Shown piece by piece: positions 47,869-62,366 of a stretch of DNA of 64,000 nucleotides (position 1 is the stretch's first letter; the number at the start of each line of letters is the position of its first letter). The notes beneath the pieces were generated by a model. It did not search any database, was not told the DNA's origin, and saw only the letters and a list, made by a program, of their open reading frames with translations. This stretch comes from Macrostomum lignano (taxonomy: Eukaryota). The stretch spans positions 248,001 through 312,000 of the forward strand of contig NIVC01001827.1 of assembly GCA_002269645.1 (NCBI GenBank), in the 5' to 3' direction. Made by a program: the position numbers and the translations under genes.

Positions 47869-50800
47869 ATGTCATCTTTGTTCCTGCGCAAAATTTTCAG
47901 CATTAATCCTGCATGTAAGTAGGAATGGCCTACTAGACTAGGCTAAGTTTATTAGTCTATATGGCTTTTAACCTAGGTTGGGTTCTGCGTTTATATCAGG
48001 TCGCATGCGTGGCCCTTTTATGTATTACTTACTGCTACTTTTAACTTTACATAAGCCTGAAAGGCTATTGCTAGCTGGGTTGTTTGTGTATAGAATGTGC
48101 AAATGCACCTTAAAATTGAAAAGTGGGTGCAGTTTAGGTGTGGTCTCATAACCTTTTTTCTTTTTAAGGTTCAAGCCTCATTTAATACAATAAATTACAC
48201 TTTGGGCTTTTAAATTGCATTTTGAAATTGAGGTATAAGGTGCAATTTTGCACCTAATCTCAGGCAAAAAACACAAATTTTCTAGGTTTAAAAAATTGTA
48301 TTAGGTCTAATATCCAGTTGCATAGATAGGGCAAAGGTGTTTTTTAGGGTGGAACCAGCTTGAAATTATAATAAAATAAAGCAAGGGCAAGGTATTCTAA
48401 CTGCCCTGTGGTGTCACTGGCTGACAAAGAAGTGCAAGTCTATAGACTGATAGATTTATAGCACACTTGGCACTCTTAACGCTTAGCCCCTCATCTGAGC
48501 GGGCCTGTGTATTTAACCAAACAGTTTCTCATACCACCTCAACACGGGGCCTTAGATTGGCTCACCGGAGAGACCGGGTAAGACACCGGCACATAGACAT
48601 TACTCACACACAAACTGTGGGGTGGGGAGGCCGGGGATGAGACAGCTTAGTCATGCTGTCTGTGCTTGGGAAAGGGGGCATGGGTGCACTGGGTACGCAG
48701 CAGACAGGGGTATCAAGCCTAGACAGGCTCTAACGTGTCACTCCTCGCTCACAGTCACAACACAAGGCCAATGCAATAGTATATTAAATAGTTTCTTGAA
48801 ATATATAAAACAAGGCAATCTTTTGAAAGACAATAATTTCTTTATATGCACATAAATTTGTGCCACAAAACACTACTTTTAATAAATTCATTCTTCACAT
48901 TAAAAAGACCATTTAAACAAAGTTTAATGATAGAAATGCAAAGTTAGATAGTTAAAGGTCTAAAGAAAGTGCTTTTGCAGAAAAAAATTGTTGTTCCCAT
49001 TTTGCCCATGTAAAATTTTAAAAGTCAAATAACTTTTTTTATCCCATTTCACACAATTTTAAATGCTGTTTTTTGCGCCTTAATGAAATGAACACATAGA
49101 AAAAACAATTTGCTTGTATCTCTTCTCACTTAAAAGTTATCAGGCTTTTTTAGACTCATTTTTTGCCTATCTCCGCAATGTATTTTTTACCCAAGAACTG
49201 AAAATTGGGTTTTTTATAGATGACCCAAATAAAAGTATTTTGCAGACTTTTTGTGTTTTGTTTTTTAGAAAGTGGTATAAATGCAATTTTTAGCAATCCA
49301 CTTTTATTTTACATGTCTTACTTTGTAATACCATTTTTTATTTTTGGTGAACATGAGCATTTGCACTACTTGCAAACTACTTATGCAGAAAAAAATAAAG
49401 CTTTGTGCTACATGCCATTTTTTACTGCATTCAATTCACTGATTTTGGAGGGTCTTTACCCTCTAAAATTTGCTCCTCTCAACAAATTTCTGGTATGCTA
49501 CTATAAACAAGCAATATATTTTCTTTGTTTCTTTCTTTGTATTGCTAAAAGGTTCCAAGAACTTTTGTCAGAAACAATGAAAAAAAATTTTTGCTACTTA
49601 TCAAAAAGTTTATATTAGAATGATTATTATCAAATGAATTATGGGTGTAGTTAGTGACTTAGTGAATTAATAATTAATTATGCTTCTCTATAATTCTACT
49701 TTGCTATTACTGACATGAGCACAAAGGCTAAACTTGTAGGCATAAAGTTAAATTATAATGGCCAGCTATATATATTATTAGAAATATATAGAGTTTAAAA
49801 ATGATGCCTTTATTTCTTACCTTTTTAGTGAACTGTGTTACAAGGAGATGCTTTCAAACATCACATCCAGTTGCCACATACAGTGAGTTCTTGATTTGAT
49901 GTTTTGTCTTTCTTTATATTTAGCATGGTAATTGAGTTTATTTATATTCTTAATTCAAAGCCTCTTATAGCTACCTAAACCTACCTAACAAAAACTTTCT
50001 AAACCTAAGCCTGACTCAAAAGTAATACCTTAATGATTCTCATTTATTTCTTAGAATGTTGAACACAATTCCTTGAATTTTTAATAAATGAAGAGTTCAG
50101 AACTGTCTTCATTAAATTGTATTCAATTATTTTCCATTTGCCTGTCTAAAATCTTTTTCTTGCATAACTTCAACCAACCAATTGCATTTAACAAAATTAT
50201 CATAATTGCTAGCTTTTTGCAGGCCTCCCACAACTGACTAACAACCTGAGCCCCAATCAGTACCTGATGCCTAATGAATTAAGCCCTATTCTTATATCTC
50301 CTTATCCCATCAAACCAGCCCAGCAGCCCAATCCCAGCCCAGCCCAACAGTCACAACTGTCCAATCCCAATACAAAGCTTGTCACACATGTTCAATCCCA
50401 ATCCTTATCCAATGCCTGTCACACCTCAATTTCAATAAAAAGCCTGTCACATCTGCCCAATTCCAATCCAAAGCCTGTCACACCTGTCCAATTCCAATCC
50501 AATGCCCGTCACACCTGCCCGATACCAATCCTGTCTGCCTGTCTGCCTAATTTCAATCCAAAGCCTGTCACACCTGCCCAATTCCAATCCAAAGCCTGTC
50601 ACATCTGCCCAATTCCAATCCAAAGCCTGTTACACCTGCCCAATTCCAATCCAAAGCCTGTCACACCAATTCCAATCCAAAGCCTGTCACGCCTGTCAAC
50701 TCCAAATCCCAAGCTTGTCACACCTGCCTAATTCCAATCCAATGCCTGTCACACCAGGTCATATCAACCCAGAGCCTGTCACACCAGGTCATATCAACCC

Positions 50801-52055
50801 AGAGCCTGTCACACCTGTCTATACAGACACGCCTTATCATAAGGCACTATTCCACAATCCTGAGCAGTTCTGTCTAACCCATTACCCATTCTCAGAGCTG
50901 GTCAGCCGGCCCGATCCATCTGATGACTGGCGCACCATTGGTGACGAGAGCGCTCGCCACCTATTTCTAATCGAACTGCTGAAAGGTATGGGCATCACAA
51001 TGGCTAAAGTGTTCCAGGAGCCGGCTACTATCAATTACCCATTTGAAAAGGGTCCACTGAGTCCGCGCTTCCGCGGCGAGCACGCCCTGCGCCGTTATCC
51101 CAGCGGCGAGGAGCGCTGCATCGCTTGCAAACTGTGCGAAGCCATCTGCCCTGCCCAGGCCATCACCATTGAGGCTGAGGAGCGCGAGGACGGCTCCAGG
51201 CGGACCACTCGCTACGATATTGACATGACCAAGTGCATCTATTGCGGCTTCTGTCAGGAGGCCTGTCCAGTTGATGCCATCGTTGAAGTGAGTGTCCTTT
51301 CACTCCTAGCTGCTAAGTTAGGTCTAAATAGAAATAAGATCTCTTATGTAACATTTCTCTATTCGTCCAACCTTTAAGATATACACTTTAAAATGCTTAT
51401 AAGCTTCTCTGTTACAATATTTAGGCTCGGTCAACCCGTTCTATGCTTGGGGTGTGTAGTATTGCTTTTATCAGCTGAGTTGATTGTTACGCCAACCAAG
51501 TTGAGAATTCCAATTTAGCAGCAGTAGATTTGGTCTTGCCCATAGGCATATATAGAAAAAAGACAAGCAAGTTGATAATTCTCATCTTTACTGCGTGGAA
51601 GTCGATGTTTAAGCATGGTTTCAGTGCTGGAATCCTTTTCATTGCTGATGTCTATGGCCTAGCGGAATGGGCGACGCTCGCCTCCCCGCTGCGTCTTCGG
51701 ACCGCCCTGCAGCTAAAGATGTCTATGGCCGAAATATCAACTTGGTTTGCCTTTTTCCGTCTATGTCTATGGGCAAGATCAACTCTACCGCTGCGTAATG
51801 GGAATTCTCTGTTCGATTTTGGCCATAGACAACTGAATAGTCCTATGAATGCTTGTTGGTTTTAAATCCAGCATCGATCTGTCTGTAGTTCTGTGCTCTA
51901 TCGATGTTAATAAATTTTTTCAGGGCCCGAACTTTGAGTACTCCACAGAGACGCACGAGGAGCTGCTCTACAACAAGGAGAAATTATTGGCTAATGGCGA
52001 CCGCTGGGAGGCTGAAATAGCTGCTAATCTCAAAGCTGAGCACTATTACCGCTGA
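47869..52055 (+). CDS. NDUFS8: NADH:ubiquinone oxidoreductase iron-sulfur subunit 8 (TYKY), mitochondrial
   Basis: Exons 47869-47914, 49829-49882, 50896-51287 and 51924-52055 (GT-AG, phases 1/1/0). Two 4Fe-4S motifs, [12 protein letters not shown] and [12 protein letters not shown], and C-terminus [22 protein letters not shown]. The two small 5' exons give a presequence-like N-terminus ending ATYK. Confidence 0.97.
50400..50820. repeat. Degenerate minisatellite of about 28 bp (AATTCCAATCCAAAGCCTGTCACACCTGCCC) in NDUFS8 intron 2
   Basis: Direct inspection; explains the spurious N-terminus of ORF 50502. Confidence 0.9.
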
Positions 52056-54440: not shown

Positions 54441-56432
54441 ATGGCCTGGATATCTTACGGTGGCCGCAGTGGCGCGACCATTCTCGATAAACGTCGCAGC
54501 CGCTACGCCGACAACGCTTCCAACAGCGACGACGGAGGTGCCGTTGGATCTGACGATCCGCCGCGTTACAAAGGCGTCCCATTGTGCGGCGCCGGCCTCT
54601 GCTCGGGCCCCGGCCTGCCGCCGAAGCGGCTGCCCCGGCCGGGCATCGACTGCGTCAACGGTGACCGGCCCTGTCTGCCCTGCGACATCGTCAACGTGCG
54701 CCTACGTGTGGCCGTCGCCGGCTCCAAGGTGAAGCGGGCGGTGGCCGAGTGTCAAAGGCGCTACTTCTGCCGAGTGTGGAACCTGCTGTTCGCCTACCTG
54801 TTCCCTGGCGAGCACCGCGATGGCCCGTGCAATCCTCGAGTCGTGAGGCCCAACGATCCCATGCCCGTTTGCCGTGGCCAGCCGCAAAATAGTCAATGGC
54901 GGCAGAGACAAAAGTGAGCGTTTCTTACATTTCTGGGGCCGAAAAATCGCTGTTGGAAAGTTGATTTCCCGCCTTTCTACTGTCAAAGTTTCAATCTCGT
55001 TCGCTTCGACATCAAAACTTGGCAGTTCAGTTGCGAATGTTGATTATACTTGCTCGTCTAATACTCGTCAAAACTCGATTACAAACGAGCAACGAGCACT
55101 TGCTCAGCCCTGGTGCCCACTAGTAGTAGCTCGGCTCTGCTTTGAATTTTCCCGTATTGCACTAGGGAAATTCCTTAAACTTCTGGTTAGTAACAAAGTG
55201 GCAGTTTTCCCAGTTTCCAGGAATTAATAAATAGGGTGAGAGGGAAACTTGCATTCATAATTGTCAGACAGGACGAGTTAAATGCTATTGAATAGCTTTG
55301 AATACCTGCCGGTGTTGTGAGAGGCTTCGCATGGCTTTTGTAGAAATATTTGCTAAATTGGACTTACCTAATCTTGAATAAGTCTTAATGTCTCTATCGG
55401 AGATGAGATTAGTAAATTTATTTAAACCTTAAGGCACGGGTCGGAAAACTCAGCTCTCTTCTCTATTTTCTCTCCCCTCCCCTCTCATCTCATCTATCAT
55501 CTCCTTGTTCCTCTTCTCTTTCCTCCTTAATCTATCAAAAACAATTTGCAGACTTCTGGCTCGGGTTCTGTTCCCGAGGTTGCTTTAATGCGGCATGCAC
55601 AAGCGGAATTCGATCGGGTTTCGGCTAAATTTAAAGGGTCGCCATCATAAACCCGAAAAATCACAACTCCGAAAGCACTTCCAATCATAAACCCGAAATA
55701 TCATAACTCCGAAAACCTAAATAGTGTTGGACATTGCTAGAACTTTCGGAGTTATGATATTTCAGGTTTGTGATATTTCGGGTTTGTGATATTTTGGGTT
55801 TGTGATATTTCGGGTTTATGATATTTCGGGTTTAAGATGGAAAGCGCTTTTCGGAGTTGTAATTTTTTGGGTTTGTGATGCCCCCATTGTTGGCCTAGCT
55901 GAAACTACAGCTGATTATCATTATCATCGGTCATCATATAAAAGTGTTTTACCTTTGGTCGATCGAAACTTCCGAAAGATACTAAATTAGGTCCATAGGC
56001 CCCCCAACAGTCTCAACACTGTGCAAGTGTATTCTAATCATTTCTCAGTGTCAAATTGAATCCCGCCTTGCTATGTTTATTTGCAGGCAGAGCCAGCCCA
56101 GGCCTGTCTGGGAGCGAGCGCTCAGCCCAGTTGAGGACATGAAGATGACGGACCATCGGGTGCGCAGACGCCTGCCAGACGAGCAGAAGCAACCGCCTGC
56201 CAGCACGCCGCCGCCACCGCCGCCGCCGCCGCCGCCGACAGCTAAGAAGCGACCAGCAGTTCAGACGCGCCGACAGGCCGGCAACCTGCGGTATAACCTG
56301 GTTGACAGGCCCTACCTGACTGGTGACAGCCTCAAGAGTCACCAGATTCGCGGCGCCACGCCAGCGCGGAATGGACAGTTGCGAGGCAATTTCTACGACC
56401 TGCCGGCAATGGATTCTGAGAAGAGAGCCTGA
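54441..56432 (+). CDS. Uncharacterised protein, two coding exons, containing a PCLPCDIV...AECxxRYFxRVWxLLFAxLFP domain (paralogue A)
   Basis: ORF 54441-54913 ends in a phase-2 donor (aa|gtgagc) that joins in frame to the acceptor ttgcag|g at 56087 (poly-Pro exon to the stop at 56432). The domain is conserved at amino-acid level with the ORF at 60.1 kb. The true start may lie further upstream. Confidence 0.65.
55636..55885. mobile_element. Foldback-type MITE with subterminal tandem repeats, in the intron of paralogue A
   Basis: Left arm with CATAAACCCGAAA/CAACTCCGAAA units, inverted against right-arm TTTCGGGTTTGTG/TTTCGGAGTTG units. Confidence 0.7.
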
Positions 56433-57662: not shown

Positions 57663-58200
57663 CACAGTGTTGTCTATGGTCAAACTAAGCCACACAACTC
57701 AGTTGTCTATGGGTAAAACAACTCTTAAAACAGCCAATTGAAGCATGATAAAAAGTGTGGAATAATGACAGCGACAAAAGTGTGGAATAATGGCCGCAAA
57801 AGTGTGGAATAATGGTAGATTAAGTCTATGGTTTCAGACTTGGATAATGATCACAGTCACGAGTGGCGAAGCCACGAGTGACTGCTGATCATTATTTAAT
57901 TCTGAAACCATAGACATAATCGCATTATCATATAGACTAGCGTTTTCGGTTGATCATTATGTAACGCCATTAAGCCACGCCATTAAGTAACGCTGCAGTG
58001 TCTTCGTGCCATAGATATTGGCTCGGCAGTGAGCAGGGACAAGGGAGCGCAGCTCCCTTGCGGGGGTGTGGGGGCAGAGCCCCACTAATTGGACCATAGA
58101 CAATTTTTTAGAATACAGTTCTCTAAAAGAAAAGCTCGACCATGAAGTCTGTTAGGAAGTTAAGAACTAGAAGCAAGAAGCGAGAGAAATCGAATTAAAA

Positions 58201-59550
58201 ATGCCTCTTATCAACTGGAAAAACCTACCGGTCGACAGTTTAGATGGCGTCTCGTCTACTGAACTAGATTTTCTGAGTGAACTGAGCGCCGTGAACCACA
58301 GTTCCGATGAAATTCTTGGAGATTTTATCGACTACCTGACTAAAATCGAGACGGCTGATGAGGCCGCTGCGGTTTCTAGTGTCGAGCTTCCAGAACTATC
58401 TGATTTACCCAGTGCGATGGATGTTGCCGAACTGGAATCACTGCCGAGCACTACACGAGAACACATGTTTCTGTATGGCAAAATGTTCGTGGAGTTTTTG
58501 AAGAAACATGGTGCTGTGGATGTAAGCGTGATCAGTGACAGTCGCTTGGCCGAATTTTTAAGGTTCTTTTACTTCTGTCTAAAAAAATCTGACGGCAGTT
58601 GCTATTCGCCAGCTACGTTGGTCTGCATTCGTGCTGGAGTGCAGAGGTACTTGACTCTCGTGCTGAAGCGTCGAACAAATATTATTTCCAGTGACGAGTT
58701 CGCCACTGCCAACCGGATGCTGCGAGTAAAGGTGCGGCATTTTCATGCTGATGGAGGCACTGTCAATCAGCACGAGCCAATAGAAGAAGGTGATTTACAG
58801 AAAATGCGTGCTTATTTTGACCGTTCTACAGCAGAACGGTTGCAAGATGAAGTACTATTTACGCTGCTGTATGTCCTGGGCGAGAGAGGTCAAGAACACC
58901 TGTCAAGTCTAAAGCAAGTTGGCACGCTCCAAGAAGAAGTCGACGCTGATGGGAATCCATATCTTGCGTTGCCGCCGTTAAAGACAAAAAACCAGACTAG
59001 CGATCCAACAAAATGCAAGGGAAATCAGCGCAAACAGAGTCGGATCTACGGCGCTCAGCGGGAGTTGATCCTGCATCATCAGAGTTTGTTACCGCAGAAT
59101 TCGTCCTCGTTCTTTCCGCGCCCTCTGACTAACAATTCGGGAGGACAAATTCGATTCTCTGCTACGCAAGTGCGCGGTGTCAATTGGTTGGCTGCATTCA
59201 TGAAGCACGTTAGTAGTGTGTGCAACCTCTCCAAGCAGTACACGAATCACTGCATACGCGTCACGCGTATTGCGGATCTTTTCGACAAAGGAATGCCTAT
59301 GGGGGAGATAATGGCGGTAACGGGACAACGATCGGAGTCCACTGTTCGACGTTATCTCGCACGCAAGCGTGACAGAACCCTCAGGAAGGTTGCTACCGCT
59401 GTTAGTGACAATTTGGCCGCACCAACCGATGCGACTACGAGTGCAACCACTAGTGCAACAGTCATGCAGCAAGCTCAAGTTGACCTGCGAGGTGTGCAAC
59501 AGCCGATGTTTGCCAACTGCCTCTTCGATGGGTGCACGTTCAAATTCTAA
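58201..59550 (+). CDS. Tyrosine recombinase, Crypton/DUF3504 (KCTD1/ZMYM/QRICH1-related) type, 449 aa, intronless
   Basis: Motifs YSPATLVCIRAGVQRYL, GERGQE (catalytic R), KTKN (K), YTNHCIR (HxxR), TGQRS (H/W position is Q), VRRY (Y), and C-terminal MFANCLFDGCTFKF. Confidence 0.88.
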   Translation: MPLINWKNLPVDSLDGVSSTELDFLSELSAVNHSSDEILGDFIDYLTKIETADEAAAVSSVELPELSDLPSAMDVAELESLPSTTREHMFLYGKMFVEFLKKHGAVDVSVISDSRLAEFLRFFYFCLKKSDGSCYSPATLVCIRAGVQRYLTLVLKRRTNIISSDEFATANRMLRVKVRHFHADGGTVNQHEPIEEGDLQKMRAYFDRSTAERLQDEVLFTLLYVLGERGQEHLSSLKQVGTLQEEVDADGNPYLALPPLKTKNQTSDPTKCKGNQRKQSRIYGAQRELILHHQSLLPQNSSSFFPRPLTNNSGGQIRFSATQVRGVNWLAAFMKHVSSVCNLSKQYTNHCIRVTRIADLFDKGMPMGEIMAVTGQRSESTVRRYLARKRDRTLRKVATAVSDNLAAPTDATTSATTSATVMQQAQVDLRGVQQPMFANCLFDGCTFKF

Positions 59551-59923
59551 CAAAGAATATATAGCTCGTACTTATAAGTCTTAACTGTCGAAAATCAAAT
59601 ACTTTGGTATTCGTTTGCTTTGCTATATCCTCGGTCTGTTTCCTGTTAAAGTTCTTGTTGCTTAAATTAATAAAAACAGTGAATTTCTCGCTCATAATCT
59701 ATGGCAATTTATCGTGACTTAACATCTTCATTAAAAAATGCATTAAAAAACGATAGTCTATATGATAATGACTGAGCGCTGAGTGAAAGTATAAATACAA
59801 TGCACTTTTATAGTATGCAACTGAGTTGAATAATGGCCAAAACTCGAGTGCGCTACGCCTACCGCCTACCGGCGCTCGCCAGACAATCGTTGTCACGCAC
59901 TGGGACCGCTGATTATTTATCCA

Positions 59924-61863: not shown

Positions 61864-62097
61864 GCCGAGTTGTGTGCGCGTAATTTTGGCTGGCGTTGAC
61901 TGCCGTTGGCGGACCGTTCAATGCGGAGCTTCCAGGCCGGGCGCATCAAAGATTAACAATACGCGACTAGCGTCGATTCTGTGGCTGATGCTACAGCATT
62001 GCTCAGCTAGTTTCTGCTGCATCTGTTGTCAATTATTTTTTAAATAGGTCTTTCCACCATAGAACCCTTATTTACGAGTAAATAACCCTTATGTATC

Positions 62098-62302
62098 AGA
62101 TTAAACATGCCTTTTGAGGGAGTTATTTGTATAAATCACGAGGGCCTGAGGCCCGAGGGATTTATGAAAATAACTCCCGAAAAAGGCATGTGTAATCTCG
62201 TATAAACCATAGACATAAAGACTTTACGGGATATTTTTGAATATTACCAAATAAAATCCCGGAGAACGCAAATATTGTCACGGAAAGTCTTTATTTCTAT
62301 GG
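62098..62302. mobile_element. Non-coding hairpin element with CGAG-stem-loop-CGAG core followed by a short IR-bounded cassette
   Basis: Arms about 62098-62138 / 62158-62198 surround CGAGGGCCTGAGGCCCGAG. Then CCATAGACATAAAGACTTT (62207) / AAAGTCTTTATTTCTATGG (to 62302), 18/19 IR. Confidence 0.6.
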
Positions 62303-62366
62303 ATTATTGCTGCTATTCCCACCCGATTTACGGGGCTCAAATGTCACGGAAATCTTCAATCCTCAT

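Follow-up and report, generated by a model that had tools for sequence, protein, structure and literature searches.

How does a DNA element that carries a tyrosine recombinase as its sole mobility gene move, and does a hairpin next to that gene have a part in it? The question is raised by a 1,961-bp element, here referred to as family F1, at positions 57810–59770 (plus strand) of a 64,000-nucleotide stretch of Macrostomum lignano DNA, which we call the window. F1 has one ORF, encoding a tyrosine recombinase, with neither a reverse transcriptase nor a DDE transposase. In the genome from which the window itself comes (G000), the same boundaries were found across copies with unrelated flanks: F1 was identified at at least 13 other places, some of which are duplicates of a single insertion, at 96–100% identity over nearly its full length (40 of 938 candidates scored), and the flanks change abruptly at either boundary. 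The left and right termini are not inverted repeats of each other. F1 is a young Crypton-type DNA transposon, and most likely it belongs to the animal DUF3504 group of Cryptons.

The recombinase ORF (58201–59550, plus strand, 449 aa) carries the catalytic residues R229, K263, H350, R353 and Y385, which are kept in 39–40 of the 40 aligned rows, and has Q at the second His/Trp position; the second His is replaced by Q in 5 of the 6 alignment rows listed. In Pfam, the F1 recombinase matched Phage_integrase (E 0.0065) and QRICH1 (E 0.014), both below the curated cut-offs, and did not itself match DUF3504. This domain was matched by 24 of the 29 scanned homologues, with E up to 0.01, and homologues at 30–38% identity have both DUF3504 and QRICH1 domains. 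A sequence search of solved structures with the recombinase gave no useful match, while its predicted structure (pLDDT 84.6) matched Cre at E 6.6e-10, making Cre the closest fold to the model. Searching G000 at the protein level, with 128 of 1,428 candidates scored, revealed sister families at 43–69% identity, and this set was enlarged by 40 further loci taken by place. The recombinase frame ends directly after the H-x-x-R motif in families F6–F9 (L068–L085), which would be consistent with an intron at that point; the frame of F1 is uninterrupted.

F1 was itself inserted into a remnant of a sister-family element on the minus strand (59771–59920, resuming left of 57810), the extent of which is approximate, as it was matched by eye to L054, L088 and L061. 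The insertion point is a TAATG within this remnant, and contigs linking 57808 to 59765, from flank to flank, were present in 3 of 4 runs. The host repeat (57750–57817 and 59771–59920; also L101–L103 and L177) has several YAATG sites, and the matching site in other copies of it is occupied by a 198-bp family, so that the elements nest in each other. At two other loci, L107 and L108 (G000:C3526 and C794), the left end of F1 is joined, inverted, to a near-target that lies some 180 bases into the element, an arrangement that is a local rearrangement at a recombination boundary.

All four strings that had been named in the preliminary description, namely the core of the hairpin, a second hairpin at 58040–58060, a G-rich block at 58062–58083 and a minus-strand heptamer at 59852–59858, were found in their places. 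The core (57854–57884, plus strand) contains a tandem GA/GA mismatch (57861–57862 and 57876–57877) and a GAA loop (57868–57870) closed by a C-G pair. It forms the tip of a larger hairpin at the left end of the element (57818–57921, plus strand), whose 36-nt arms (57818–57853 and 57886–57921) are 89% complementary; folding of this hairpin gave z scores of about −12.6 and −13.3, and none of 200 shuffles was as good. The top strand had been described as the more stable of the two. Computation does not bear this out, as the ViennaRNA energies of the two strands are equal (−38.6 vs −38.7 kcal/mol), and the asymmetry rests instead on published DNA chemistry: both GCGNAGC/GCGNNAGC mini-hairpins (PMC13037366) and CGAG blocks (PMC10085684) are reported to be stable in DNA, their stability in RNA being much lower. 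An RNA structure was set aside, since GNA loops are far less stable in RNA (PMC13037366) and F1 encodes no reverse transcriptase.

Conservation and compensatory change in the hairpin had been proposed beforehand as a test whose failure would refute recombination of a folded single strand, and the hairpin withstood it. We found the GA/GA mismatch and the G(N)1-2A loop kept on one strand while stem pairs change on both sides. Both features recur across sister families of 30–62% protein identity, in which intact cores read CAC-GA-stem-loop-stem-GA-GTG, with GAA, GTA, GCTA or GGTA as the loop and stems of 5–6 bp. The stem is changed on both sides in F7 and F9, and in a four-family alignment the change was two-sided in 18 of the 29 predicted pairs. 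Two more distant lineages also have GA/GA with a GNA loop, and in one of them the recombinase was matched at E 1e-42. A genome-wide search for the core, with a pattern that left both mismatch and loop free, detected 90 sites in G000 versus 8 in the control, these sites being copies of few families and not independent events. Of the 90 sites, 50 were listed; 47 of these had GA/GA, 3 had GA/AA and none was perfectly paired, and the loop was of the G..A type on the GA strand in all 50. Covariation should be read with caution here, because template switching can make the arms of a palindrome co-vary without selection. We also considered GA/GA as a mere by-product of two direct repeats, a reading weakened by their spacing, which varies from 15 to 17 nt, and weakened further by F7 and F9, which alter both repeats while keeping the pairing. 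Elsewhere in the window, a second, non-coding element belonging to a distant sister family was identified at 62089–62308; it is laid out like F1, with TTAT-type ends, a 117-nt hairpin and a GA/GA core; its loop is TGA, and that of its coding relative (L350) is GAA.

As predicted from the sequence, the hairpin closes on an internal inverted site, site B (57917–57946, minus strand), which would pair with both ends of the element and which is new here. The left end, site A (57810–57822, plus strand), starts with TAATG (57810–57814) and is composed of a 4-mer, a 5-nt spacer (57814–57818) and the inverted 4-mer (57819–57822); the right end, site C (59747–59770, plus strand), finishes with TAATG (59766–59770). 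Site B nearly copies the joined ends in inverted form and has a 3-nt spacer (57921–57923): positions 57923–57946, 113 nt inside the left end, are 96% complementary to the last 24 bases of F1, and the bases preceding 57923 pair with its left end. About ten sister families have this layout in common, running from the left end through the hairpin and site B to the right end, and the 198-bp non-coding family retains these parts alone.

We scanned the spacer of site B, taking the stem register solely from the arm and the pairing of the terminal 4-mer as the score. The best B spacer was 3 nt in 11 of 12 rows from G000 and in 10 of 11 families, compared with 5 nt on the left side; the latter was fixed by reading, and the scan covered the B side. 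F3 is the exception, as a 0-nt spacer scored 4 and a 3-nt spacer 3.5; the left ends of F3 and F13 were placed without confirmation by independent flanks. The span from A to B is 117–127 nt in 11 of the 12 rows despite differing arm sequences. Pairing of B with the right end of its own family was judged from local alignment together with reading by eye: in 6 of 9 families the alignment between the downstream arm of B and the reverse-complemented right end began at the first base, and in the remaining 3 the best local alignment lay elsewhere, with a shorter imperfect match at B visible by eye. In one F7 copy (L146/L184, G000:C251), a 69-bp stretch that spans site B is present as six tandem repeats.

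This layout bears on two alternative explanations. It is hardly credible that the palindrome arose passively and contributes nothing to movement; the hairpin is deleted or scrambled in many copies, as might be expected of a by-product, but families of 30–62% protein identity, and the minimal non-coding family too, have retained its mismatches, its type of loop and its length. Site B could also work as a splint or template on which both ends of a linear single strand are held ready to be joined; integration of a double-stranded circle would then proceed in the normal way. Being complementary to both termini, it is similar in this respect to a DIRS-1 region reported as essential (PMC7192593). 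However, copying from B would erase the 2-nt offset, which persists in 10 of 11 families, and F1 encodes no reverse transcriptase, so we regard such a splint as distinctly unlikely.

Upstream of the ORF, the 9-bp hairpin at 58040–58060 and the G-rich block at 58062–58083 make up a G-rich double-hairpin module (58040–58083, plus strand) with 35 exact occurrences in G000. Twenty of its loci comprise 4 from F1, 8 others with a same-strand recombinase downstream and 8 without one within 1.5 kb; the first loop varies, mostly having G at its start and A at its end. Perhaps the module serves as a promoter or as a second-strand signal. The likeness of the G-rich block to rolling-circle origins, which had been suggested, was not recovered when 58030–58095 was compared with 72,556 plasmids (best E 0.1, with no record covering 80%), and a need for the module in movement finds no support, the 198-bp family lacking it. 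The heptamer at 59852 had likewise been counted with the element; it lies 82 bases beyond the right end at 59770, inside the sister-element remnant, and alone it is not beyond chance, given 36 occurrences of GCGNAGC in the window and the weak folding of 59830–59900 (z −0.7 and −2.2). The window contains 32 occurrences of the octamer GTCTATGG, counting its complement, and most families have it again upstream of the ORF. Other features of the window are an array of 16-bp repeats arranged as inverted blocks (55643–55880) and one or more host exons (50439–51377) coding for a protein with two 4Fe-4S-type cysteine motifs, which presumably resembles an iron-sulfur subunit of complex I.

As to orientation, counted with an orientation-blind pattern, GA lies on the top strand of the element in all 19 loci of the 198-bp family. 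In F7, where 27 loci were reduced by eye to 21 insertions, one of them unscorable, it lies on the top strand in 16 of 20 and the core is inverted in the other 4, two of these being clean and two having deletions. Single inverted cores, mostly damaged, are also present in F1, F2, F3, F4, F5 and F9. The existence of inverted cores argues against the strict top-strand polarity proposed earlier, unless they arose after insertion, and the bias in orientation argues against an obligatory flip-flop replication. An amplification of the latter kind, based on rolling-hairpin replication or, on a circle, on 2-micron-style inversion between two inverted sites, would account for the clean inverted cores at two separate F7 insertions with different SNP backgrounds. 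It is nonetheless very improbable: the orientations, at 16 to 4 and 19 to 0, are not even; the inverted F1 copy keeps its outer asymmetric bases, which locates the switch within the arms rather than at sites A and B; and no Rep or polymerase gene is present. SNPs in F7 describe a star-like family and have almost no power on whether the inverted copies form a single lineage.

We also looked for the layout in other hosts. Protein-guided locus searches found no relatives among 84 candidates in metagenome contigs or 18 candidates in viral contigs. The core pattern had at least 120 matches in metagenome contigs and none in viral contigs, and most of the metagenome matches are AT-rich repeats with a longer hairpin. 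Eighty metagenome loci were examined, and a second GA/GA pair, absent from the search pattern, was detected in 31 of the 44 that could be scored on both sides. When reverse-complemented, the sequence that follows the hairpin is similar to the right ends of these repeats, and a B spacer of 3 nt was the best in none of 4. What ties the repeats to Cryptons is their layout alone, since no recombinase gene was found beside them in the loci examined and the offset of 5 versus 3 nt is not clean. A GA/GA and GAA core was further observed in intergenic repeats that are GC-rich and bacterial-looking, as well as in an unrelated repeat that has terminal inverted repeats (L256, L282, L245, L259 and L270).

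The ends themselves indicate where strands are exchanged. Direct terminal 5-mers were tallied over 8 families at 89 left and 91 right ends. On the left, departures from the family's own 5-mer at positions 1–5 numbered 28, 2, 5, 1 and 3 of 89, and on the right 0, 0, 1, 0 and 5 of 91. In the right flanks listed, the left-end spacer does not follow; target homology amounts to 5 bp and stops at the spacer. Such variation puts the crossover within the 5-mer, probably somewhere from position 3 to position 5, and past it homology is absent. The asymmetry of the ends at position 1, as read from these tallies, would fit a one-exchange reaction, and would also fit a duplex crossover with a short overlap.

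A rival reading is movement as an ordinary double-stranded circle, on which B and the other YAATG repeats would be accessory binding sites and the hairpin a cruciform or a replication signal for the second strand or the circle. Several YAATG/CATTR repeats do lie close to both ends in many families, the predicted recombinase fold is closest to Cre, inverted cores exist, and GNA mini-hairpins are reported at phage priming sites and promoters (PMC13037366). Yet mere binding sites would need neither 35–45 paired bases nor a fixed span of about 117 nt nor the offset of 5 versus 3 nt, and the target homology is only 5 bp and ends at the spacer. We consider the duplex circle unlikely, if still deserving of some weight. 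There were no head-to-tail junctions in the G000 assembly and none among the joints listed from contigs of 8 runs, a result that is weak either way because contigs drop rare forms.

The explanation we favour, at about an even level of belief, is that the left-end hairpin and the mirrored site B fold one strand into the site of the recombinase, on which a single strand exchange takes place. The coding strand would be set free, probably in the form of a circle that replication copies or peels out. Its GA/GA and GNA tip would nucleate folding, upon which the joined ends would pair with site B. The 5-nt spacer of the junction strand, lying opposite 3 nt on B, would permit one exchange with a genomic YAATG and hinder a second one, and the junction would then be resolved by host replication. 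With a spacer that falls short by 2 bp, site B would be inactive as a duplex. This folded-strand reading is supported by the 3-nt B spacer, the fixed span, the match of B to the right end in 6 of 9 families, the two-sided pair changes, the uniform core sites listed, the minimal 198-bp family, the tallies of terminal 5-mers, the second GA/GA pair of the metagenome repeats and the precedents of attP and attC. It is opposed by the lack of head-to-tail junctions in the assembly and listed contigs, the inverted cores, the equal energies of the two strands, the spacer exceptions in F3 and in the metagenome repeats, and the 3 families in which the right end aligned best elsewhere. The analogy to integron attC and CTXphi attP, drawn in the preliminary description, gains support from the internal site B, and action of the recombinase on folded single strands is still something we infer. 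It is also conceivable, in our judgement falling slightly short of even, that animal Cryptons are the eukaryotic counterpart of the integron and CTXphi systems, with a folded-strand site, one exchange and replication to finish the reaction.

The layout supplies precise ends, a motif for the target, a minimal substrate of 198 bp and the intact recombinase of a young family, which makes the mechanism directly testable. To our knowledge, single-strand site-specific recombination is known only from bacteria; if the fold model is true, it also runs in animal nuclei. If Cryptons fold one strand and use one exchange, this would explain how copies are gained with a recombinase alone. More speculatively, the layout may hint at the former targets of domesticated DUF3504 proteins, e.g. 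ZMYM and KCTD1.

Some Crypton-derived repeats in Repbase or Dfam are reportedly listed as palindromic. No such hairpin or layout was found for a Crypton in the accessible text of the literature, including the 2026 Glomhopper paper and the 2018 Repbase review, and Repbase or Dfam entries may note a palindrome. As far as the available portions of the published descriptions go, F1 is similar to Cryptons (CryptonA/DUF3504; PMC3212892, PMC13465315) in having one tyrosine-recombinase ORF, a length of about 2 kb, short direct end repeats and non-coding derivatives. On the other hand, it differs from the animal Cryptons in its 5-bp repeats, its terminal hairpin of about 117 nt and its internal inverted copy of the joined ends; in the accessible part of their paper, Kojima and Jurka (2011) found no terminal repeats in animal Cryptons (PMC3212892). 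The Crypton literature, in its available text, offers a tentative circle model for movement and gives the ends of animal Cryptons as undetermined.

Among eukaryotic elements the closest layout is that of DIRS, in which, according to the available description, a tyrosine-recombinase element also has an internal segment complementary to both termini; in DIRS-1 this region is essential and an exact complement (PMC7192593). F1, however, lacks the reverse transcriptase, RNase H and long terminal repeats of DIRS, and its complementary segment, some 110 nt away from the left end, has a 2-nt offset. Integrative elements of the strand-biased circularizing type likewise use a tyrosine recombinase and have one strand circularized, but they are bacterial, have four core genes and, in the text available, pass through nicked double-stranded circles (PMC10214605).

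With integron attC, as it is partly described, F1 shares an imperfect palindrome of similar length and an unpaired spacer beside a short conserved box, the unpaired central spacer of attC being used in recombination (PMC2727003). It differs in that there is no cassette array or attI, the box has a different sequence and the fold needs both ends of the element. In CTXphi, the accessible account gives attP as two inverted sites 90 bp apart with central regions of 12 and 5–7 bp, which are unusable as duplex and become active once the strand folds, whereupon one exchange takes place and replication finishes the reaction (PMC4246890). F1 similarly has two inverted sites, with unequal centres about 90–100 nt apart, that would pair within one strand, as in attP(+). 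CTXphi relies on XerC/D of its host, on dif as a fixed target and on the single-stranded genome of a phage, whereas F1 has its own recombinase and scattered 5-bp YAATG targets. By analogy, CTXphi attP is the closest working model for the putative fold of F1.
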